32,000 nt of DNA from Candidatus Saccharibacteria bacterium oral taxon 488 (GTDB lineage Bacteria; Patescibacteriota; Saccharimonadia; Saccharimonadales; Saccharimonadaceae), in NCBI GenBank assembly GCA_010202845.1, contig CP047921.1, positions 330,001 through 362,000 of the forward strand, given 5' to 3'. The translations under genes were made by a program, and so were the position numbers. Below, piece by piece: positions 7,207 to 32,000 of this stretch. The first letter of the stretch is position 1, and each line of letters starts with the position of its first letter. Under the pieces are notes generated by a model. It was not told where the DNA came from. It made no database searches and saw only the letters and a list, made by a program, of their open reading frames with translations.

Positions 7207-7293
7207 GCCGCGGTGGCGGAATTGGTAGACGCGCTAGACTCAAAATCTGGTGAGCAATCGCTCGTGCCGGTTCAAGTCCGGCCCGCGGTACCA
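7207..7293 (+). tRNA. tRNA-Leu (anticodon CAA), CCA encoded
   Basis: Hand-folded cloverleaf. Acceptor stem is GCCGCGG/CCGCGGT (G1-U72). The D region GGCGGAATTGGTAGACGC is typical of Leu. Anticodon arm is CTAGA-CTCAAAA-TCTGG. There is a long variable arm, T-arm GCCGG-TTCAAGT-CCGGC, and discriminator A followed by CCA. Confidence 0.93.
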
Positions 7294-10265: not shown

Positions 10266-11072
10266 TTACTTGGCAACTGATGTATTGTCGCGTAATTTGA
10301 CCATGTTTTGGTACACTTCGTCAAAGGTCAGCCCTGATTCGTGGATGAGGCTGGCTAGGTCTTTGCCGACATAGCGGAAGTGCCAGGCTTCGCTGGCGAT
10401 GCCGGTGATTTTTTCCTTGCCCTTCGGATAGCGCAGAATAAAACCGTATTCGTGGGCGTGGGTGGCGAGCCAGCCGGCGGTTTTTGGATCAAGTGCGCAG
10501 TCGCTGAAGCGGGCCTTGCATTTCTCGGAAAAGCTGGTTAAGTCAACCGCTAGGCCCAGCTGATGCTCGCTGTGGCCAGGCTTGGCGACATATTCGTCAG
10601 TGTGGGCGGCGCCGTTTTTGGCGGTGGTTTCAGTGCGGACTTTGGCTTGGGCGGTGCCGGAGCGGTAAGCGCTAGAGACGAGGACCGGCAGCTTGGCTTT
10701 GGTTGCAGCCTGACGTAGTTGCTCCAGTGGCTCTTTAACCATCGGTTGCACGCGCTTATCATCTATCCACGCTGGTGTGCCATCAGTAATATCAGTCAGC
10801 GGCGGCTCAAAGGCTGGGTCGATGCCTTGCTTGCCCGAGACATAAGACCAGATTTTCCCGGTTTGTAAATACTTCCACGACGGAAAGGTCAAGTCGCGAT
10901 TGGTGCGGTCAAGGCGGATGGTGACCGGCTGAAAATTATACAGCGGCGAATTAGCGACCGACGCCGACGTTTGGTTGACGAGCTGCGTGCCGCCATTGAT
11001 CATCAGTAGTGTTAGTGTCGTCCAGGCCGCCAAAACCATGGCCACGACTGCGCGCCCCACCCCGTGCTTCAT
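10266..11072 (-). CDS. D-alanyl-D-alanine carboxypeptidase, peptidase M15B (VanY-like), paralogue 2
   Basis: Motifs SAYRSGTAQ, PGHSEHQLGLAVDL and EAWHFRYVG supply the Zn ligands of VanY/M15B. An N-terminal signal/TM segment is present. Confidence 0.85.
   Translation of the reverse strand: MKHGVGRAVVAMVLAAWTTLTLLMINGGTQLVNQTSASVANSPLYNFQPVTIRLDRTNRDLTFPSWKYLQTGKIWSYVSGKQGIDPAFEPPLTDITDGTPAWIDDKRVQPMVKEPLEQLRQAATKAKLPVLVSSAYRSGTAQAKVRTETTAKNGAAHTDEYVAKPGHSEHQLGLAVDLTSFSEKCKARFSDCALDPKTAGWLATHAHEYGFILRYPKGKEKITGIASEAWHFRYVGKDLASLIHESGLTFDEVYQNMVKLRDNTSVAK
10415..10460 (-). repeat. 46-nt tract 43/46 identical to 11228-11273 (29-nt perfect run) inside the VanY paralogues
   Basis: I aligned the two tracts directly. 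ccttgcccttcggatagcgcagaataaaaccgtattcgtgggcgtg compares with ccttacccttcgggtagcgcagaataaaaccgtattcgtgggcatg. Confidence 0.85.
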
Positions 11073-11957
11073 TTATTGTGTTCCTCGCTGTTTGAGTTTG
11101 GTCATTGCTTCTTCAATATACGACCAAGCCTCCTCCATCGTCAAGCCCGACTGATGCAGAGCGCCCGCTAGTTCCCGCCCGACGTAGCGAAAATGCCATG
11201 GCTCGTATTGATAGCCGGTGATCGATTCCTTACCCTTCGGGTAGCGCAGAATAAAACCGTATTCGTGGGCATGAGCGGCTAGCCATTTGCCGGCGGTGGT
11301 TCGTTCGAAACAATCATCCACCCAGCAGGTTTGATCGGCGCCAGCAAAGTCGACGGCTAGGCCTGATTGGTGTTCGCTGTGGCCGGGGCGCGAGCTAAAG
11401 CGGCTGGCTTCGGCCTCGCCATGTCGGCGGGCGTAGCTGGCAAAGAGTGAGGCTTGGGTGGCGTAACTGCGGTAGCCTGAGCCGACGCGGAGGGTGACGC
11501 CGGCGGCGCGGGCAGCGGCGACTAATTTCTCGAGATCAGGCATGAGGACGGCGCGGAGCGAGCGCTCATCCTGACCGCGGCCGGGTAATGTCGGCACGCT
11601 GACGAGGCGGAGGTCGCTGGGCTGATAGCGAGGATTGGCGAAGGCTCGGGATTTGTTAGCAATTTTCCAGAGATCGGCGTCATCGGCACTGTTGACAATG
11701 CGAGCGGGGATCGGTGTAGCGTTTGGCAGAGCGATGGTAATTGGTGCAGCTGGTGCTGGAGTTTTCGGGCTGTCGGGATCTTTTTCTTTGGGTGTCGGCG
11801 CGGGCTGCTCTTGGCTGATAGGCTGCTGGGCAGTGGTACGCGGCGGGTTGAAATGACGGAGGGTGAAATAAGTCGCTACAGCACTACTGGCGATGATCAG
11901 CACGGCACCCAGGCCAAGGAGCAGCTTACGTTCCCTCAAGCGTTTGGTAATTTTCAT
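11073..11957 (-). CDS. D-alanyl-D-alanine carboxypeptidase, peptidase M15B (VanY-like), paralogue 1
   Basis: Motifs SGYRSYATQ, PGHSEHQSGLAVDF and EPWHFRYVG, plus an N-terminal TM and a Pro-rich linker. Its stop abuts the start of the next paralogue with no gap. Confidence 0.85.
   Translation of the reverse strand: MKITKRLRERKLLLGLGAVLIIASSAVATYFTLRHFNPPRTTAQQPISQEQPAPTPKEKDPDSPKTPAPAAPITIALPNATPIPARIVNSADDADLWKIANKSRAFANPRYQPSDLRLVSVPTLPGRGQDERSLRAVLMPDLEKLVAAARAAGVTLRVGSGYRSYATQASLFASYARRHGEAEASRFSSRPGHSEHQSGLAVDFAGADQTCWVDDCFERTTAGKWLAAHAHEYGFILRYPKGKESITGYQYEPWHFRYVGRELAGALHQSGLTMEEAWSYIEEAMTKLKQRGTQ
11228..11273 (-). repeat. partner of the 10415-10460 tract
   Basis: See 10415-10460. Both tracts encode AHEYGFILRYPKGKE. 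Confidence 0.85.
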
Positions 11958-15839: not shown

Positions 15840-16271
15840 TTAGCTAGAAGAGGATTGGTCTGTCTGGGCTGCGTCCCGTTGCATCTGATCTAGAAGCGAG
15901 AGAAGTCTTTCATTGGGATCTTCCGGTGTGGTAATTTCCTCTTTTGCTAGAATCATCATACTAACCTGTAGCTTATTCATGACATCTGCGATTTCTCCCA
16001 GGGCTGCTTGCTTTTGCGACACATCTAATTCATCATCATGATATATGCTATCAACACGATCCAGAGACTCGTAATATAATTGGCGAAGTAACCCTGACTT
16101 GTCTGATGTAAAAATAAGCGGAAGGGGGCCTGGAAGTCCTGCTTCATTTAACAACACTTGACGCGCTAAGCGATTCTTTCCTTCTGTATTGTCTAGTAGT
16201 CCAGCTAGCTCACTTTCGAGGATGTTTTGGATAGCTTCAATAACAATCTCTGCGTAAACGAGGCATAGCAT
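15840..16271 (-). CDS. hypothetical helical protein (island gene D)
   Basis: 143-aa ORF in a low-GC block, predicted all-helical by eye, with an acidic C-terminus. I recognise no motif. Confidence 0.6.
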   Translation of the reverse strand: MLCLVYAEIVIEAIQNILESELAGLLDNTEGKNRLARQVLLNEAGLPGPLPLIFTSDKSGLLRQLYYESLDRVDSIYHDDELDVSQKQAALGEIADVMNKLQVSMMILAKEEITTPEDPNERLLSLLDQMQRDAAQTDQSSSS

Positions 16272-16278
16272 TGCCTGC

Positions 16279-16470
16279 TCAGGGTTTGGAGGGCTTAGAA
16301 TTTTGCTGTCCGATCACATCAAGTTTGTCTGGGGCGTCGACTATGTAAATTTCGTTTGGATTAACTATATCAAGTTCGTGCTCAGACGGTGCACCAACGC
16401 TAGTGCCGCTGGCTGGGTATCTTTTATCTGTTGGCTCTTGTGATGCTCGTGGTGCCGTCTCTATATTCAT
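16279..16470 (-). CDS. hypothetical small acidic protein (island gene C)
   Basis: 63-aa ORF, 7 nt upstream of gene D on the same strand. The composition looks disordered. Confidence 0.4.
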   Translation of the reverse strand: MNIETAPRASQEPTDKRYPASGTSVGAPSEHELDIVNPNEIYIVDAPDKLDVIGQQNSKPSKP

Positions 16471-16507
16471 ACTTTTATACCAATAAATTTCGATTTGATT
16501 ATTAGCG

Positions 16508-17077
16508 CTAGCCTGCTAGTTTAGTTAATTCGTCCTCAACGTCGTTTACTTTTGCTAACAGCTTAGTCCTTTCTGTGAGTAACCTCGTTAGCTTACTACG
16601 GCGTTTTTCCATTTCTGCTTCTACCGCAGAAAATTCTTTAAATTGTTTTATAACGCTGTCATTATATTCGAGTTTCTTGGAGTAGTCATCCAGTGTTGTT
16701 AGTAGATACTCAAGGTTGCTGTCCAGTTTCTCTTTGGGGAGTCGTTCTCTAACTACAGCAATATAGGCAAATACAGATGTGGCCGTATCTTGGATATCAT
16801 TGTACAACTCTTCGCTGTATTTACCGGTAGCTACATTGAACTCTATAAGAGCGTTTTGTGCCGCCTCACGGTCGCCAGTTGCTGCCACTTTGGCAACGTA
16901 GCCAATAACATTGAGACTATCGGCAAAACTCAAGACGTAATTAGGGTCGTCTCTCTTGTCGACCTCTTTACACTTATCTCGTATGGCGTTAATTGTTGGG
17001 TGTGTTTGCCCCATGTCGTCAGTGAGACGAGGGATCTCCTGCATGCGTGCTGGGCGGTTTTTACTCATGGTTTCCAT
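16508..17077 (-). CDS. hypothetical protein with C-terminal coiled coil (island gene B)
   Basis: 189-aa ORF. The C-terminal 50 aa are heptad-like (EAEMEKRRSKLTRLLTERTKLLAKVNDVEDELTKL). It shares an R-x-R-[IL]-P-x-[DE]-x-[IL]-x-x-N motif with gene A. Confidence 0.7.
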   Translation of the reverse strand: METMSKNRPARMQEIPRLTDDMGQTHPTINAIRDKCKEVDKRDDPNYVLSFADSLNVIGYVAKVAATGDREAAQNALIEFNVATGKYSEELYNDIQDTATSVFAYIAVVRERLPKEKLDSNLEYLLTTLDDYSKKLEYNDSVIKQFKEFSAVEAEMEKRRSKLTRLLTERTKLLAKVNDVEDELTKLAG

Positions 17078-17085
17078 AGTTTTTA

Positions 17086-17094
17086 ACTATAACA
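17086..17094 (-). promoter_or_regulatory. extended -10 promoter TGTTATAGT, 8 nt from ATG 17077
   Basis: The reverse complement of 17086-17094 reads TGTTATAGT. Confidence 0.45.
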
Positions 17095-17208
17095 TAAAAT
17101 AATTTAAAAAGCAATAACAACGTATGTATCGAAGCATGCCGTATGCTGCACTTTGTAGCTGAAAGCATCGGGTATTATGTAATTGGCGTACACGTGTCTA
17201 CCGAATAT

Positions 17209-17688
17209 TTAGTGATCATCAACCGTCAAAGGTGGTTCATCCGTCAGAGCGCTGACTCGCACGGCGGCTACTATTCCTAGTTGTTTGATACCACTTGACC
17301 ACTGATCTTTCCAAGCACGATTCTTTCTATTGGTCCTGTCTTTGGCCTTATGTATATCAACAATCAGCTGCAGCATCGTGTTGTTGAGCGTACCTTCAAT
17401 TAGCTCGCCGTCAGCATCACGATCACAAACGAAGCCCTCAATCGCCTCGTTCATATTCTTGGTAATTTCATCCGTTGGGATACGGTGTCTGGCGTACAGG
17501 ATGAGGGCTGTCATGCGCTTTAGGTTGTTTATCGTAATTTTTCGGGATTCATGTATTTCTGGATCACCTAACGCGTCTTTGGCTTGAGCAAAGATATCAT
17601 CGAGGCGCGACTCATATCCTTTCATGATGGTCTCTATCGCTTCCGGCGTTTTTGCCGTGTTTGTTGGCGGTTTGTCGTGTATACCCAT
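17209..17688 (-). CDS. hypothetical helical protein (island gene A)
   Basis: 159-aa ORF in the low-GC block. It contains ARHRIPTDEITKNMNEAI, to compare with VRERLPKEKLDSNLEYLL in gene B. Confidence 0.65.
   Translation of the reverse strand: MGIHDKPPTNTAKTPEAIETIMKGYESRLDDIFAQAKDALGDPEIHESRKITINNLKRMTALILYARHRIPTDEITKNMNEAIEGFVCDRDADGELIEGTLNNTMLQLIVDIHKAKDRTNRKNRAWKDQWSSGIKQLGIVAAVRVSALTDEPPLTVDDH

Positions 17689-25353: not shown

Positions 25354-25357
<4 letters not shown>
24476..25357 (+). CDS. atpG: F0F1 ATP synthase subunit gamma
   Basis: N-terminal IRSVDSTKQITKAMQLVAASK and C-terminal ARQGAITQELAEI. Confidence 0.94.
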
Positions 25358-27274
<1,917 letters not shown>

Positions 27275-27797: not shown

Positions 27798-28595
27798 TTA
27801 CAGACCTGCCAACAAATCATTGGTGATATGGTATATATTATTTTGTTGCTTTTTTGATAATGCGCCAGCAACTAGCGATAAGTATGGGTCAAAAAAATAT
27901 GTCTTAATACACTCACTACTTGGCATTGAAGTAATATAATCAGGTAATGTTCCCATATACCAATCCATATCATCAATAATGCCGCGACAGCTTTTGTCGA
28001 AATAAGAGGAAGTAAGGTCTATTGCTCGCACGTCCCCTGTCTTTGTATGAAATGCGGTATTTTTAATTTGTGCGTCACCGTGGGCAACTCCTGATTTATG
28101 TAGTTTCGCGAGTGTTGTTGCTCCTATGAGTAGGACGCGTTGTATTTTTTCAGGATCATCTGTACGATCCGTAATTGTGTCACAACTTACGACATCACCC
28201 TCAAACATTGATATTGTATGTATAGAATTCCTGTCTGGTAGAAATCCCAGCGGCTGATATGGCCTAATGTACCCTTCACTAGTAAGCCGCTGTGTAATAC
28301 AGAATTCCGAGAGCGCAGAGGCGGCATTGCAGTGAGGCTTAAGAGCTACAGGTATGTCCGTATTACCTGTTGATATCTTTCCGAATCTGACACCACTCGT
28401 GGTGTCATGTCGTCCTATAGAATACTCTTCAATGGGAGTAAATGTCAATTTTTGACCACAGCTGACATTACTTAGCGGTGTATCATATGCTACAAGGAGT
28501 TGTCCGTTAGGCGTATTCTCTATCGCTGTACGCAGTTTTCGCTTTGGTTGACTTTGAGGGAGTGTGTCGTATACGCGTATCTCTGAAGGTAACAT
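27798..28595 (-). CDS. atypical protein-kinase-like fold protein (RIO/Kdo/APH-like)
   Basis: Motifs are VALKP (VAIK-type Lys), HGDAQIKN (HxDxxxxN catalytic loop) and AIDLT (DFG-equivalent Asp). Start is ATG 28595, 2 nt after the dus TGA, or GTG 28601 overlapping it (GTGA). GC is very low (about 33% on a sampled line). Confidence 0.7.
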   Translation of the reverse strand: MLPSEIRVYDTLPQSQPKRKLRTAIENTPNGQLLVAYDTPLSNVSCGQKLTFTPIEEYSIGRHDTTSGVRFGKISTGNTDIPVALKPHCNAASALSEFCITQRLTSEGYIRPYQPLGFLPDRNSIHTISMFEGDVVSCDTITDRTDDPEKIQRVLLIGATTLAKLHKSGVAHGDAQIKNTAFHTKTGDVRAIDLTSSYFDKSCRGIIDDMDWYMGTLPDYITSMPSSECIKTYFFDPYLSLVAGALSKKQQNNIYHITNDLLAGL

Positions 28596-28597
28596 TA

Positions 28598-29851
28598 TCA
28601 CATTATATCATAATATTTGTATTTTTCAAGTATCTGGCGGACGTCGTCGGTGCTGGTGGTGTGCATCAACTGTTCGCGCAGTTCCTTGGCGCCATCAAAG
28701 TCGCGGATGTAGATTTTGAAGAAGCGTTTGAGGGTTTCGAAGGGGCGGCCGAGAGTTGGTTGATAGCGGTCAAAGAGATCGAGGTGGTAGTGTAATAAGG
28801 CGATTAGTTCAGTTTTACGGGTGGTAATGGATAGTTCTGCTCCCTCGGAGTGTTCTTTACGGATGGCTTCGCTCGCCTCTCGGACATCGTCAGAAAAGCC
28901 GGGGTCACCAGCGCCACGCTCCTGCGCTGGAGTACTCTTTTCGCTTGCATCTCCACTGGAGATACTACGCGAGCGTTCGGCTGAAACGTCCGCTCCTCGC
29001 GAACGTTTCACAGCCTCCAGCGCAGAAGGTGTCGCTGGCGCTGGTGTATCTGACGTGAGTGGCGTCTCAGAAAAAATCTGGGATTGTCTCGGGTCCCGGA
29101 TTGTTTTATGAGATACCGCTCGAGATGCTCGAAAACAAAACGGATCGCTGAAAATGCCCCGCCCGATCATGACGCCGTTGATGCCGGGATGTTGACGGAC
29201 TAGCTCTAGACCATGGGTTCGGTTGCGGATATCGCCGTTGATAGTTAGTAAAGTTTGTGGGGCGATTTCATCGCGTAGTTTGATGATGTCGTTGATGAGC
29301 TCGTAATGCGCTGGGACTTTACTCATTTCTTTTTTGGTGCGTAGGTGGATGGTTAGGTTGGCGAGGTTTTGCGTGAGTAAGGTGCTAAGCCATTCGCGCC
29401 ATTCGTCGATATAAGTATAGCCCAGCCTGGTTTTAACGCTGACTGGCAATCCAGCAGTTTTAGCAGCGGCAATGGCGGCGACCGCTACGTCGGGCTGGCG
29501 GATCAGTGCCGCTCCCCCGCTTTTGATGGCGGATTTGGCGGGACAACCCATGTTGATGTCAATGCCGTCAAAGCCGAGCTCCATGCAGTGAGCGGCAAAT
29601 TGTTCCATGTCGCCCGGCTCACCGCCCCAGATTTGGGCGACCAGCGGATGCTCATCGTCGGTCTTGACGAGCCGCCCAGCGATGGCCTTGTCGCCAGCGT
29701 GCACCCAGCCAGTTGCATTGGCAAACTCGGTGAAAAACACGTCGGGCGCGCCCGCCTGTTTCACGACATGGCGAAACACCACGTCCGTGACGGCTTCCAT
29801 GGGTGCCAAGATGAAAAATGGCTGCGGTAGATTGTCCCAAAATGATGTCAT
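28598..29851 (-). CDS. dus: tRNA-dihydrouridine synthase (Dus family) carrying an in-frame insertion
   Basis: Motifs are ILAPMEAVTDVVFR, GFDGIDINMGCP, TIHLRTKKE, INGDI and GVMIGRG. A low-complexity insert lies between the TIM barrel (…DPFCF) and the C-terminal helical domain (…ELIALLHYHLDLF). Confidence 0.9.
   Translation of the reverse strand: MTSFWDNLPQPFFILAPMEAVTDVVFRHVVKQAGAPDVFFTEFANATGWVHAGDKAIAGRLVKTDDEHPLVAQIWGGEPGDMEQFAAHCMELGFDGIDINMGCPAKSAIKSGGAALIRQPDVAVAAIAAAKTAGLPVSVKTRLGYTYIDEWREWLSTLLTQNLANLTIHLRTKKEMSKVPAHYELINDIIKLRDEIAPQTLLTINGDIRNRTHGLELVRQHPGINGVMIGRGIFSDPFCFRASRAVSHKTIRDPRQSQIFSETPLTSDTPAPATPSALEAVKRSRGADVSAERSRSISSGDASEKSTPAQERGAGDPGFSDDVREASEAIRKEHSEGAELSITTRKTELIALLHYHLDLFDRYQPTLGRPFETLKRFFKIYIRDFDGAKELREQLMHTTSTDDVRQILEKYKYYDIM
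28908..29082 (-). repeat. intragenic hairpin-rich repeat element, copy 2 (in dus, sense orientation)
   Basis: 28908-28983 is the exact reverse complement of 19267-19342. Homology extends to about 29082. Arms lie at 28919-28932 and 29015-29028 (13/14). Confidence 0.9.
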
Positions 29852-29867: not shown

Positions 29868-29880
29868 CAAAAAGGAAAAT

Positions 29881-29910
29881 CCCCTCACTCTCGCCATTGA
29901 GAATGAGGGG
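29881..29910 (-). terminator. intrinsic terminator of the upstream non-coding locus
   Basis: 12-bp stem CCCCTCATTCTC / GAGAGTGAGGGG on the minus strand (1 mismatch) with a 6-nt loop. It is followed by ATTTTCCTTTTTG. Confidence 0.75.
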
Positions 29911-30025
29911 TGTTGGCGGGTTCAAGCGGTTCTGCTCGGAGTTAATCTCAACGTTGAGAAAAGCTACCACGAGTGAATCTCGCGAGCCCGGGAGGGAGAG
30001 ATGACACGCCATTGTGCCATCTCAG

Positions 30026-30096
30026 TGGATGTGACGGGACTTGAACCCGCAAGGCGCATCGGTTTTTAAGACCTTGCCTTCTTACCTAGCACACCC
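30026..30096 (-). ncRNA. tRNA-like module (7-bp acceptor stem with G3-U70, T-arm, discriminator A; anticodon/D arms replaced by one hairpin)
   Basis: Minus-strand sequence is GGGTGTG-CTAGGTAAG-[AAGGC..GGT-CTTAAAA-ACC..GCCTT]-GCGGG-TTCAAGT-CCCGT-CACATCC-A. It cannot be folded into a canonical cloverleaf. No CCA is encoded. Confidence 0.5.
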
Positions 30097-30515
30097 TGTG
30101 ATTCTTTTCCGGATTACCGGTCGGCGAATCAAGCCGGGGGCGGACGGACGCCCTTTTGCTGACGCGGGGTCAGCGGGTTTCGGGGTCGCACAAACCCCGA
30201 CCGTCACAATATAATAGCTAGTTCATCTTACCACACGCGTGGCAAGCCCACGAGTTTCCCCGTGGGACCGAGCTAATGTTATTTTTCTGGGAGCAGTGCT
30301 TACACCGCACCCAGATTGGGTTCGTCCAGCCTGACGCACTAGACGAGCCTTCGTAGTTGCCGAACAAGGGTTTTCACCCCCTCCCCGCCGCGGTTGCGGC
30401 GATAGAAAAGAGCTAATCCTCTTATCAGACCATGCCTTTGTGCGAAGCATAGTCAGGGCTTGGTATTATTCGCAATACCTCGCCAGTATTAGCTCCGTGA
30501 ACAAAAGCAAGTATA

Positions 30516-30544
30516 TATATATCAATAATAGCAAGCCATGTCAA
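30516..30544 (-). promoter_or_regulatory. near-consensus sigma70-type promoter TTGACA-17 nt-TATATA driving the non-coding locus
   Basis: On the minus strand, TTGACA lies at 30544-30539, followed by a 17-nt spacer and TATATA at 30521-30516. Confidence 0.65.
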
Positions 30545-30563
30545 TAGTTTTTGTCAAGATTAC

Positions 30564-32000
30564 CTACGCTACCTCTGTTAATAAATCCTCCTCAAACTGC
30601 AGCATCCCCTTATAATCCGCTGAATACCCAGAGATATCCGGTAGTTCCAGCATGGTGATTTTCCGCCAGACGACATTGATTAGCCGGGCAAATTCAGCCA
30701 ATTCCTCCTTAGAGAACGTGTCCTCCAGGCTGAGGATGCCGCCAGTTTTCATGTCCGGCTCGACGAATTGCAGGCGGGCGCCGGTGAAGGTGAAATTGCC
30801 ATAATCGCGTGATGACGTGACTAAGAGTTGATAAAACATCAGCTGCTGGCGGTATTTGTGGAGCTTGATTCTTTCGTAATCAGACGCGCCCTTCCAGGAG
30901 TGCGATGGCTTGCCGGTCTTGTAATCGGTCACGAATATGGTTTTATTATTCTTATCAATATCAGCGACGTCCAGCTTGCCGGTCAGGCGCGCGCCGCTAA
31001 CGACGACGCCTTGATGAGCGAAATCGAGTTCCGCGAGCTCCGTGTCACGAAAATCAGACGATTTGGCGTCCAGAAACGCCGTCAGCGCCGCCGTGCCTTT
31101 GTCTAGATATAGCTCGAAATCGTCGGGCAGCAGGTGCTGGGTCTCGAGCGATGTGCGGAAATGTTGGAGGATGCGCTCGGCAGGCGGCAGGCGGTGGTCA
31201 GCGCCTAGCAGATTGTGCAGCTGCTGGAGACTGGCGTGAATGGCGGTGCCGTAGCTGGCGGCGGGATTTTTGGCGGACGGAAAGCGCAGCAGATTATTCA
31301 ACAAAAAGTTCTGCGGGCCGCCGCGCGAGACGTCGAGGAAGTTATTCAGATGCGTAATGGAAAGTTTGTAGGTTTCTAAGGTCGGCGCTAGTACATCCTT
31401 GAGCTCCGCGGTAATCGGCGCGCTCAGCCGCGTGCTCCAGTCGGTTTGCGCCATAGTGATTTGCGCCGCGGGCGTGTCGGCGGCGGGGATAATCGTCGGT
31501 GTGTGGGCGGTCAGGAAGCTGGCGATCATGGTGTCGCTACCGGCGTCGTTGGTCTGGGAATAGGTCATGGTCAGGGTGGTCTTGGCGCGGGTCATCGCTA
31601 CGAAAAATAGCCGCAGCCGCTCGTCGTAGCTGGCGCCGGCGGGCTGGAGCTGGAGGTTGGCGGGATAGCGAATCAGCCGCGAGCGCGAGCGGACTTTCTC
31701 GCCCCACGCGCTGTCGATTGCCCCAATGACGAAAACGTGCGGGAACTCCAGGCCTTTGGATTTGTGGGCGGTCATCAGGTTGATGGCGCCACCGAGGGTG
31801 CTGGCCTGGGGACGGATGTATGTCAGGCGGGTTTTGGTCGAGCGGTGCAGGTCGATGAACTCTAAAAAGTCCGCCAGCGTCGGTATTGCGTCGGTGACGC
31901 GGTCGCGTAATTTTTGGCGCAGTGTGCGCAGGCTCTCGAGCGTGGTTAGATAGGCGTCGGGGTTTTGGGCGAGGTTATCGGGCGAGAAGTAGTGGGCGGC
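30564..32000 (-). CDS. UvrD/PcrA/AddA-type SF1 helicase with C-terminal RecB-like (PD-(D/E)XK) nuclease domain, C-terminal part only
   Basis: I checked the frame by hand and it is open from 32000 down to the stop at 30564. Helicase motif INLMTAHKSKGLEF is present. The C-terminal nuclease motif is GKLDVADID...IFVTDYKTGK. The N-terminus lies beyond the right edge. Confidence 0.85.
   Translation of the reverse strand, partial: AAHYFSPDNLAQNPDAYLTTLESLRTLRQKLRDRVTDAIPTLADFLEFIDLHRSTKTRLTYIRPQASTLGGAINLMTAHKSKGLEFPHVFVIGAIDSAWGEKVRSRSRLIRYPANLQLQPAGASYDERLRLFFVAMTRAKTTLTMTYSQTNDAGSDTMIASFLTAHTPTIIPAADTPAAQITMAQTDWSTRLSAPITAELKDVLAPTLETYKLSITHLNNFLDVSRGGPQNFLLNNLLRFPSAKNPAASYGTAIHASLQQLHNLLGADHRLPPAERILQHFRTSLETQHLLPDDFELYLDKGTAALTAFLDAKSSDFRDTELAELDFAHQGVVVSGARLTGKLDVADIDKNNKTIFVTDYKTGKPSHSWKGASDYERIKLHKYRQQLMFYQLLVTSSRDYGNFTFTGARLQFVEPDMKTGGILSLEDTFSKEELAEFARLINVVWRKITMLELPDISGYSADYKGMLQFEEDLLTEVA

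Follow-up and report, generated by a model that had tools for sequence, protein, structure and literature searches.

In bacteria, RNase P cuts non-tRNA substrates of tRNA-like shape, and in vertebrates the 3' ends of MALAT1 and MEN-beta are formed at an embedded tRNA-like element (review PMC4919922). Here, we describe a bacterial locus in which an element of this shape lies within a predicted structured transcript. It is found on the minus strand of a 32,000-nucleotide (nt) stretch from Candidatus Saccharibacteria bacterium oral taxon 488 (contig CP047921.1, positions 330,001 to 362,000), called the window below and numbered from its first letter. The locus fills the gap between the stop codon of a UvrD/PD-(D/E)XK helicase-nuclease gene (end of the open reading frame, ORF, at 30564) and the ATG of dus (29851). 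Saccharibacteria live as ultrasmall epibionts in the human mouth and gut, and their tiny genomes are densely packed. For one of them, Nanosynbacter lyticus TM7x, a transcriptome preprint states that there are "no currently validated small RNAs". Full-text literature searches returned no description of the locus. To our knowledge, no described system combines a pseudoknotted scaffold, an exchangeable slot for a micro-ORF, embedded tRNA mimics and a conserved 3' RNA, and we know of no case of a swapped micro-protein insert inside a structured RNA. The locus appears to be undescribed.

With moderate confidence, we take the locus for a composite transcription unit specific to Saccharibacteria, whose RNA would be cut at the tRNA-like element, and not for a plain noncoding RNA. 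This reading draws on anatomy, conservation, covariation, a coding signature, cassette exchange and taxonomic restriction, all of which are apparent in the compared sequences.

Anatomy and distribution of the locus

Relatives were collected with a pattern made of the two most conserved 3' blocks (TTCACTCG N15-45 CCGAGCAGAACCGC), which was run against one genome per prokaryotic species, metagenomes and viral contigs. All 75 loci found in the genomes were labelled Saccharibacteria or Nanosynbacter. The metagenomes gave at least 120 matches, five of which were chance hits in unrelated high-GC coding regions, approximately the number estimated beforehand; the same pattern found no copy in the viral contigs. 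In total, about 190 related loci were obtained from Saccharibacteria genomes or matching metagenome contigs, and by these scans the locus is restricted to Saccharibacteria. The related loci, designated by L numbers where one has to be singled out, share an order of parts. In the 5' part, the helicase gene is followed by a promoter, a 5' untranslated region (5'UTR) of about 140 nt, the sequence GGAGG, a small hairpin and the NUG start codon of an ORF of 44-63 codons. The middle part comprises a three-way junction, two hairpins (E1 and E2), an A-rich leader ending in GAAUCA(CA) and one or two tRNA-like units. The 3' part is formed by a hairpin or variable spacer, a domain that we call H, a terminator and usually dus. 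The corresponding positions in the window are collected in Table 1.

An earlier note on this DNA, written from its letters alone, had described an ornate minus-strand RNA locus of about 640 nt running from promoter to terminator. Our analysis supports this description: its promoter (TTGACA-17-TATATA) is present in the sequence, the terminator with its T-tract could be confirmed, and every hairpin it named was found at the coordinates given. The promoter has a TG two bases 5' of the -10 element and a second TTGACA 13 nt further upstream, and it is kept nearly base for base in close relatives; from it, a transcription start near 30509 is inferred. A consensus promoter scanner missed it only through its requirement for T at position 6 of the -10 element. 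The stem of the terminator varies in sequence among relatives with its pairing retained. The dense secondary structure of which the note had spoken is also borne out, as the 641-nt RNA reaches a minimum free energy of -283 kcal/mol against -219 ± 8.7 kcal/mol for dinucleotide shuffles (z = -7.4), and several helices covary across relatives.

The note had further recognised no RNA family in the locus, and had specifically failed to see an RNase P RNA or a canonical tmRNA (transfer-messenger RNA); the database searches agree. No family of Rfam 15 matches anywhere in the locus at gathering score. In a lax search, which admitted expect values (E) of up to 10, the tmRNA model alone matched with a small E-value, at 30096-30023, and RNase P RNA, 6S, SRP, ROOL, GOLLD, OLE, raiA and HEARO gave no match between 29700 and 30700; none of these families matched in related loci either. 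ARAGORN returned nothing at the locus, its only call in the window being an unrelated tRNA-Leu at 7207. Rfam was also run on 14 related loci, with gathering and lax cut-offs, and ARAGORN on more than 60; no known family emerged beyond incomplete tmRNA or tRNA matches confined to the tRNA-like units. RNase P-like motifs within H (CCGGGCUC, CAGAACC-GCUU) were judged coincidental, as no RNase P model scores.

In the middle part, helices P1, P2 and X of the junction and the stems of E1 and E2 were tested together: 97.1% of cells are paired, compared with at most 59% when the partners are slid by 1-3 columns. Compensatory changes occur in 12 of the 23 pairs, one P1 pair changing from G-C to A-U in 13 sequences, and no shuffle equals the observed covariation score. 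Since P1 and X cross each other, they form either a pseudoknot or two alternative folds. A putative second pseudoknot, ending 2 nt 5' of the tRNA-like unit, would join the loop of E1 to the GAAUCA of the leader. Their complementarity persists in four variants, with few independent events among them: UGAUUC/GAAUCA, GUGAUUC/GAAUCAC, UGAUC/GAUCA (L055 and L075, a single base being lost on each side) and GUGAUU/AAUCAC (L056). We regard this loop-leader pseudoknot as likely.

The 5'UTR alignment of 37 distinct sequences contains compensatory double changes in 15 of its 37 predicted pairs. Nearly all of them fall into the two hairpins between 30484 and 30428, with up to 16 sequences per pair. The 5'-terminal hairpin shows only one-sided, pair-keeping changes (U-G to U-A) and no compensatory ones. 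In the small hairpin before the start codon, GGG/CCC becomes GAG/CUC or AGG/CCU in relatives. Several further pairings were considered and dropped. For an initial 5'UTR helix, GGAGCUAAU/AUUAGCUCU, the G-to-A changes are better explained by the 5'-terminal hairpin GCUUU/GGAGC, and only its CUAAY/RUUAG part may pair. Masking of the Shine-Dalgarno site by the pyrimidine tract is compatible with the alignment but uninformative, since any register pairs. A long-range pairing of UCUUUUC in the 5'UTR with GAAAAGA 5' of the tRNA-like unit was rejected because the changes on the two sides mismatch: L012, L043 and L076 would form C-A mismatches, and in L021 and L049 one strand has lost a U where the other has gained an A.

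In the 3' part, the 10-bp hairpin is conserved with few changes in relatives whose tRNA-like unit is of the window's class. Within H, GCGAG-AUUCA-CUCGU and CUCCGAGCAGAACCGC never vary, yet both blocks also formed the search pattern. As H is very conserved, little covariation is on offer. A covariance model of H scores 133 bits at the window and finds nothing in the distant syntenic loci L201-L208.

These distant loci were found by context look-ups on the most distant members of one micro-protein family, MGFFEDRS... (see below). They lie in genomes with the same gene order (helicase, small ORF, dus) and are simpler or rearranged, retaining the small ORF with its Shine-Dalgarno site, a tRNA-like unit and a terminator. 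L201 accommodates an ORF, a tRNA-like unit (Rfam tRNA, 32.7 bits) and a terminator within 370 nt; 57 nt precede the ORF and 160 nt follow it. In L204, an RNA-like stretch of about 400 nt without a convincing ORF (1590-2080) ends in a tRNA-like unit (CCCGAUG/CAUCGGG) and a terminator. It is followed by a second promoter and tandem ORFs for a 74-aa zinc ribbon and a 52-aa member of a helical family, each behind GAGGAGGTGA (2230-2659); both types of micro-protein can thus coexist in one locus. L207 has its tRNA-like unit 5' of the ORF. Judging from these layouts, the pairing of a micro-ORF with a tRNA-like unit seems to be old at this site, and the 5'UTR, the junction and H would be elaborations seen only in loci recovered with the H-domain pattern. 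The homologous locus of TM7x (CP007496.1, ~280032-280714, minus strand) clearly contains three of the four modules; nhmmer matches to its middle part and to H are weak, and its 5'UTR is related by eye.

The micro-ORF and its exchange

According to the earlier note, the locus held no plausible ORF and was purely noncoding. The 75-aa frame that it dismissed (30450-30223) is indeed noise, but an ORF in another frame (Table 1) carries a coding signature across relatives, so that the purely noncoding reading did not survive. This ORF starts directly after the small hairpin GGGU-GAAA-ACCC, which itself lies 3' of GGAGG. Its orthologues in L005 and L052 differ mainly by synonymous changes, closer orthologues were found in metagenomes, and TM7x carries a related 48-aa zinc ribbon. 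Codons were counted within each family, on the ORFs behind the conserved Shine-Dalgarno site in all loci. In the window's family, variable sites are distributed over the three codon positions as 12/2/20, and in all ORF families together as 55/41/151; 105 codon columns vary only synonymously, compared with 72 that include an amino-acid change. This bias in codon position and the synonymous excess amount to a protein-coding signature, which shows, as far as sequence comparison goes, that the ORF is under protein-level purifying selection in several families. Most loci whose upstream sequence reaches far enough keep the Shine-Dalgarno site and NUG start. Judged by its sequence evolution, the locus therefore presents a small, translated-looking ORF inside a conserved structured RNA.

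The micro-protein of the window has no homologue among 5.8 billion protein database clusters, because gene callers never called its ORF. Pfam and NCBIfam gave only sub-threshold zinc-ribbon matches. AlphaFold2, run on the single sequence, yielded a weak model (mean predicted local distance difference test score 64.6) with two short β-strands (residues 18-21 and 28-31). The ORF also contains a hairpin, CCCACG-GGGAAACU-CGUGGG (30266-30247, minus strand). In L005 this is kept as CCAGGG-GGGAAU-CCCUGG through two-sided changes, by which PRGNSW in the protein becomes PGGNPW; these were the only two variants seen.

The coding signature bears on the possibility that the locus is a giant ornate RNA of the ROOL, GOLLD or OLE kind, purely noncoding, in which the ORF would be incidental. 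Its size, its dense structure and its association with a tRNA-like sequence are all reminiscent of such RNAs, and the earlier note had suggested this kinship. Of the likeness only size remains, as none of the three families matches even at E up to 10. Moreover, the purifying selection on the protein in several families and the invariant geometry of Shine-Dalgarno site and start codon point to translation. We find this alternative scarcely credible.

The ORF slot behaves as an exchangeable cassette. The Shine-Dalgarno site and the start context stay the same, but the small proteins encoded behind them are unrelated from one species to another: about 170 loci contain some 18 plausible ORF clusters, and the slot is filled by at least 15 unrelated micro-protein families. 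Some are rich in cysteine, comprising several Cys4 zinc ribbons, DnaJ-like CxxCxGxG repeats and CCHC-type knuckles. Others are cysteine-free helical families rich in Ala, Arg, Lys and Glu, among them MAGNQT..., MGFFEDRSAAAY..., MTYTDDDH... and MATWNTSDR.... Loci L010 and L017 are ~100% identical over ~650 nt from junction to dus and ~90% identical in the 5'UTR, with ORFs that cannot be aligned; identity is lost at the start codon and resumes with the first base of the junction. The pair L001/L040 shows the same pattern, and the same ORF families recur on different scaffold subtypes. Shared flanks around unrelated ORFs, together with the recurrence of families on several subtypes, imply repeated exchange, and the break points indicate that it most simply proceeds via homologous recombination in the conserved flanks. 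A scaffold whose insert is swapped among at least 15 micro-protein families is a pattern typical of conflict systems. The micro-proteins are mostly missing from protein databases and hence mark an annotation blind spot; the MGFFEDRS... family, for its part, is represented by 109 clusters.

As a separate observation, unrelated families share an aromatic-rich N-terminus (MVFFSYP, MGFFEDRS, MFGNYEG, MFKYYG, MFDTWT, MATWNT, MGWFFDP), encoded by a U-rich stretch just after the start codon. This could reflect a constraint at the RNA level or a common short peptide signal.

Exchange of cassettes next to a tRNA-like element might also be attributed to site-specific recombination, with the element serving as the attachment site of mobile cassettes. 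Mobile elements classically attach at the 3' ends of tRNA and tmRNA genes, and L005 and L026 do contain extra inserted sequence downstream of the tRNA-like unit. However, Pfam scans and the gene tables covering the neighbourhood revealed no integrase gene there, the conserved junction separates the variable ORF from the tRNA-like unit, and the exchange boundaries at start codon and junction are better accounted for by homologous recombination in the flanks. A recombination hotspot of this type is hardly plausible.

The tRNA-like units and the proposed processing

The earlier note had placed a tRNA-like unit next to the locus; the unit exists, but it sits inside the predicted transcript. It is not a canonical tRNA, for it lacks a D-arm, has an interrupted central stem and is called by neither ARAGORN nor Rfam. 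Its 12-bp acceptor-plus-T helix begins at 30096, and the conserved leader stops at 30097. The 74 units collected from 61 loci all combine a 7-bp acceptor, in which a few units form only six of the seven pairs, with a 5-bp T stem and the loop UUCRANY. Their D and anticodon regions vary from absent to a long hairpin. Besides the form seen in the window, without D-arm and with a short interrupted hairpin, there are minimal units of 51-55 nt (L047, L055), 88-nt units with a proper D-arm but a 4+7-bp hairpin for an anticodon arm, and near-normal cloverleaves. Acceptors covary between classes (GGGUGUG/CACAUCC, GGACAUG/CAUGUCC, GGACGCG/CGCGUCC, GGGCGUG/CACGCUC); the window class shows covariation in its central stem but no variation in the acceptor. 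Orthologous units that pass the tRNA model (L011, 45.9 bits; L201, 32.7 bits; L207, 49.7 bits) have a hairpin that is no anticodon arm or an anticodon that cannot be assigned, and ARAGORN either rejects units or gives inconsistent isotypes with odd anticodon positions. RNase P, RNase Z, the CCA-adding enzyme and T-loop modifiers read the acceptor/T-arm helix. That this helix alone is always kept fits selection for recognition by enzymes that read it, and its retention while the rest varies is, on this comparison, a matter of selection and not of decay.

In a subclade of twelve loci (L008, L010, L011, L013, L019, L027, L028, L041, L050, L051, L061, L062) there are two units. From ~-420 to -49 relative to H, these loci have an 88-nt D-arm unit, a spacer of ~200 nt and a window-class unit. 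The spacer holds a TATATA-type box, and the downstream unit and H may be under a promoter of their own there.

One might take the unit for part of a reduced or rearranged tmRNA. In that case, the G3:U70 unit would be an alanine-accepting rescue RNA consisting of the tRNA-like domain only, and the ORF a tag-like message. Jakobid mitochondrial tmRNA lacks the message, and the genomes of the present group are reduced. The window unit combines G3:U70 and A73 with the lack of a D-arm and of a variable loop, and the tmRNA model gives the sole Rfam signal. The ends of the units match its consensus closely, and related units reach 36.8 bits (E ~1e-11 to 1e-13; L055, L014); these high scores arise because the 3' half of the window-class unit is nearly identical to the tmRNA consensus. 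At the window, however, the model aligns at its two ends only, skipping the message domain entirely, and scores 22.2 bits against a cut-off of 47 bits; ARAGORN finds no tmRNA in the window or in relatives. The acceptor strands lie 57 nt apart, are closed by a hairpin and enclose no message, the ORF being located 121 nt upstream and outside the domain. With its conserved GGAGG and NUG start, the ORF encodes folded-looking proteins of 44-63 aa whose ends (...GKMN, ...GKKA, ...KLHW, ...ELKK and others) are no hydrophobic degron. In TM7x-type loci the alanine identity (G3:U70, discriminator A) is replaced by A3:U70 or G3:C70 with discriminator G. As four of five defining features of a tmRNA fail, we consider this alternative very unlikely.

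Conservation of the helix and its surroundings also has to be set against a plainer alternative, namely an ordinary small-protein gene with long UTRs, accompanied by a decaying tRNA pseudogene and by a conserved 3' part that is merely the terminator region shared with the dus promoter. The ORF is real, the distant L201 is much simpler, with the short flanks described above, and dus has a promoter of its own that overlaps the T-tract. Yet the noncoding flanks are better conserved than the ORF and persist through its replacement, many helices covary, crossing ones included, and a perfect or near-perfect acceptor/T helix is present in every lineage with the remainder freely variable. We therefore judge this alternative unlikely, although we would rate it above any of the others weighed here.

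The position of the locus suggests a further possibility: it might regulate dus in cis, as a leader or attenuator, and the Dus enzyme might sense the tRNA-like unit. Among the matches listed, dus adjoins the locus downstream in 64 of 74 genome loci and in 88 of 113 metagenome loci; it is on the same strand, a terminator lies just before it, and a tRNA-like RNA beside a tRNA-modifying enzyme makes a thematic link. On the other side stands a conserved extended -10 element located seven nt 5' of the dus start codon, as it implies that dus has a separate mRNA with almost no leader. Its spacing to the ATG is conserved in relatives (in L026, TGGTATACT, 6 nt, ATG), and dus seems to be transcribed from this promoter into an mRNA that would be leaderless or nearly so. 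Furthermore, the RNA locus survives where dus is displaced: L005 has ~120 nt and a Fic gene between terminator and dus with the RNA locus still intact, and 22 genuine loci (the five chance matches set aside) have no dus directly downstream. The D-arm is the usual target of Dus, and the window unit has none. A dus leader is accordingly highly improbable.

Our preferred reading, the composite unit cut at the tRNA-like element, would work as follows. The strong promoter would drive an RNA of ~640 nt that contains the 5'UTR, a Shine-Dalgarno site that the small hairpin keeps close to the UUG start, the micro-ORF, the pseudoknots, the tRNA-like unit, the 10-bp hairpin, H and the terminator. The acceptor/T-arm helix would recruit RNase P at its 5' side (30097/30096) and RNase Z or the CCA-adding enzyme at the 3' side of the unit (after 30026). 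The upstream product would be a micro-protein mRNA of ~410 nt, and the pseudoknot with the E1 loop would lock up the 3' end created by the cut (…GAAUCACA). Lying behind the junction, this pseudoknot is a plausible shield against 3' exonucleases. A tRNA-like RNA of ~71 nt would be released, possibly as a by-product and, in the window class, possibly chargeable. The remaining 3' RNA of ~155 nt would start with the 10-bp hairpin and end with the terminator hairpin, enclosing H. H is nearly invariant and this 3' RNA is the piece under the tightest sequence constraint, which makes sequence-specific binding to a protein or another RNA probable. A ~640-nt intergenic locus with pseudoknots, a tRNA mimic and a strong promoter, kept in such compact genomes, is unlikely to be idle.

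Several points weigh against this reading. Transcription, translation and processing are all deduced from sequence. P1 and X of the junction could be alternative folds instead of a pseudoknot, and the second pseudoknot draws on few independent changes. The reverse complement of the invariant H segment matched only the segment itself within the 32-kb window, so that no complementary target of H was found there. From the layouts of L207 and L204 it follows that formation of an mRNA 3' end is not a universal role of the unit; they argue for the marking of a cut site as its general role, which would fit all loci. Finally, the invariant acceptor of the window class with its G3:U70 and A73 is not required by simple processing and hints at a sequence-specific reader such as alanyl-tRNA synthetase.

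A more far-reaching version, which we regard as doubtful, takes the locus as a modular 'RNA operon'. Here, RNase P and RNase Z would release an mRNA capped by a pseudoknot, the tRNA-like RNA and the ~155-nt RNA. The slot would be a diversifying cassette (zinc ribbons, basic helical hairpins) for conflict or dialogue with the host bacterium, phages or rival strains. The tRNA-like RNA of the window class, with its tmRNA-like alanine identity, could be charged, and the conserved 3' RNA would act in trans or bind protein. The ornate scaffold would exist to ensure that any cassette occupying the slot is expressed very highly and in a processed, stable form. Since TM7x is cultivable and carries the locus, the proposal is directly testable.

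Table 1. Positions of features of the locus in the window, in the order of the minus strand.
Feature	Position	Strand	Description
Promoter	30516-30557	minus	TTGACA 30544-30539, 17-nt spacer ending TGA, -10 TATATA 30521-30516; second TTGACA 30557-30552
5'-terminal hairpin GCUUU/GGAGC	30492-30508	minus	RNAalifold helix, columns 5-22 of alignment A2
Two 5'UTR hairpins	30484-30457 (including GGTATT/AATACC), 30454-30428	minus	Strong covariation
Translation-initiation region	30368-30412	minus	Columns invariant or near-invariant
Pyrimidine tract CUCUUUUCU	30412-30404	minus	
Hairpin 3, CGCCGC-AACC-GCGGCG	30401-30386	minus	Compensatory pairs
Purine tract with GGAGG (Shine-Dalgarno)	30384-30380	minus	
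Small hairpin GGGU-GAAA-ACCC	30379-30368	minus	Ends at start codon
Micro-protein ORF	30367-30218	minus	UUG start, 49 codons, TAG stop; product MFGNYEGSSSASGWTNPIWVRCKHCSQKNNISSVPRGNSWACHACGKMN, Cys4 zinc-ribbon pattern (CxxC...CxxC)
Three-way junction, predicted pseudoknot	30138-30205	minus	P1, P2, P3, helix X
Junction P1, GACGG/CCGUC	30205-30201 / 30147-30143	minus	Covaries
Junction P2	30200-30180	minus	Covaries
Junction P3	30174-30158	minus	Covariation read from alignment only
Helix X, GGGCG/CGCCC	30153-30149 / 30142-30138	minus	Loop is P1 3' strand; covaries; missed by the earlier note
Hairpin E1	30136-30122	minus	Loop UUGAUUC; stem covaries
Hairpin E2, CCGG-UAAU-CCGG	30120-30109	minus	Stem covaries
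A-rich leader AAAAGAAUCACA	30108-30097	minus	GAAUCA can pair with E1 loop UGAUUC
tRNA-like unit without D-arm	30096-30026	minus	Folds so on its own
Acceptor of the unit, GGGUGUG/CACAUCC			G3:U70; discriminator A (30026); no encoded CCA
T-arm of the unit, GCGGG-UUCAAGU-CCCGU			5-bp T stem
Central interrupted hairpin of the unit			7-nt loop CUUAAAA
10-bp hairpin	29998-30023	minus	Begins 2 nt 3' of tRNA-like unit
Domain H	29918-29989	minus	Most sequence-conserved segment
H P1, GGGCUC/GA(A)CCC	within 29918-29989	minus	One covarying pair, G-C to A-U in 8 sequences
H central hairpin, GCGAG-AUUCA-CUCGU	29983-29969	minus	Never varies
H hairpin B, UCUCAACGUUGAGA	29959-29946	minus	Variable; two covarying pairs
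H invariant segment, CUCCGAGCAGAACCGCUUGA	29941-29922	minus	
Intrinsic terminator	29868-29910	minus	12-bp stem, 6-nt loop (29910-29881), then T-tract
Extended -10 of dus, TGGTAAAAT	29867-29859	minus	7 nt 5' of dus ATG; inside T-tract region of the upstream terminator

Genomic setting and comparison with known systems

The surrounding genes are ordinary chromosomal ones: an ATP synthase operon, a synthetase of the glutamyl-/glutaminyl-tRNA type, a sortase, VanY paralogues and glycosyltransferases. Dus of the window is 70-94% identical to metagenome proteins and ~73% identical to that of TM7x. The order helicase, gap, dus, ATP synthase is kept in TM7x, in one oral-taxon genome and in one metagenome-assembled genome. 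The gap between helicase and dus measures 683 nt in TM7x, and 1013 nt plus a Fic gene in the oral-taxon genome.

Further observations on the neighbourhood were made in passing. Dus (28598-29851, minus strand) has 417 aa, with the Pfam Dus domain confined to residues 14-252; its homologues range from 315 to ~500 aa, which implies a C-terminal extension of variable length. Between the ATP synthase gamma and beta genes lies an ORF of 169 aa without Pfam match (25354-25863, plus strand) that overlaps both at its ends. At the same position, L005 has the same 169-aa gene, L001 a NUDIX gene and TM7x nothing, so that the ATP synthase operon has a variable insert. Two stretches, 15840-17688 and 27798-28601, have a GC content of 0.40-0.46 compared with ~0.55 elsewhere. 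They hold ORFs without Pfam match, three in the first (143, 189 and 159 aa) and, in the second, one of 267 aa that shares 4 nt with the end of dus; these may be lineage-specific or acquired genes. Two neighbouring paralogues of VanY-type D-Ala-D-Ala carboxypeptidases (268 and 294 aa) occupy 10266-11957 on the minus strand. A tRNA-Leu(CAA) at 7207-7293 on the plus strand (56 bits in Rfam) is the sole canonical RNA gene found in the window.

With the large ornate RNAs ROOL, GOLLD and OLE, the locus shares a length of several hundred nt, many helices and pseudoknots and a narrow taxonomic range. ROOL and GOLLD are often found near tRNAs. Unlike these RNAs, the locus has a coding cassette; it resides on the chromosome in fixed synteny, is not associated with phages, and has no covariance-model similarity to them. 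RNAIII/hld, SgrS/SgrT and SR1/SR1P are likewise structured RNAs of several hundred nt that encode a micro-protein, with RNA parts conserved at least as well as the ORF. In contrast to them, the ORF of the locus is exchangeable and a tRNA-like module is embedded, and there is no homology. tmRNA (ssrA, RF00023) also unites a tRNA-like domain, a short ORF and pseudoknots in one RNA, and resembles the window unit in its acceptor/T-arm, G3:U70 and A73; the tRNA-like domain of the locus, however, is self-closed and lies 3' of the ORF, whose 49-aa product is a zinc ribbon and not a degradation tag, and many orthologous loci lack the alanine identity.

In tRNA-punctuated transcripts, such as those of animal mitochondria and bacterial operons of the tRNA-tufB type, tRNA-shaped elements separate segments as they do here and would be excised by RNase P and RNase Z. 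The elements of the locus differ in not being decoding tRNAs, most being rejected or oddly assigned by ARAGORN and Rfam, and in occurring only in this locus. As a family of tRNA-like modules, some of which have an alanine identity like that of tmRNA, they are missed or mis-called by the tRNA and tmRNA finders now in use.

MALAT1 and MEN-beta, with mascRNA, have in common with the locus a tRNA-like element in a long structured transcript, whose acceptor/T helix lies directly 3' of the proposed end. The proposed mechanism is alike as well: a small tRNA-like RNA would be released, and the upstream 3' end would be held in a compact structure. The locus is bacterial and has no sequence relation to them, its protective structure would be a hairpin-loop pseudoknot instead of a U-A-U triple helix, its processing is inferred, its upstream RNA is a translated-looking mRNA, and a third conserved RNA follows downstream. 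Taken together, the comparison suggests that the locus is a possible bacterial counterpart to the way in which MALAT1/mascRNA makes and protects an RNA 3' end.

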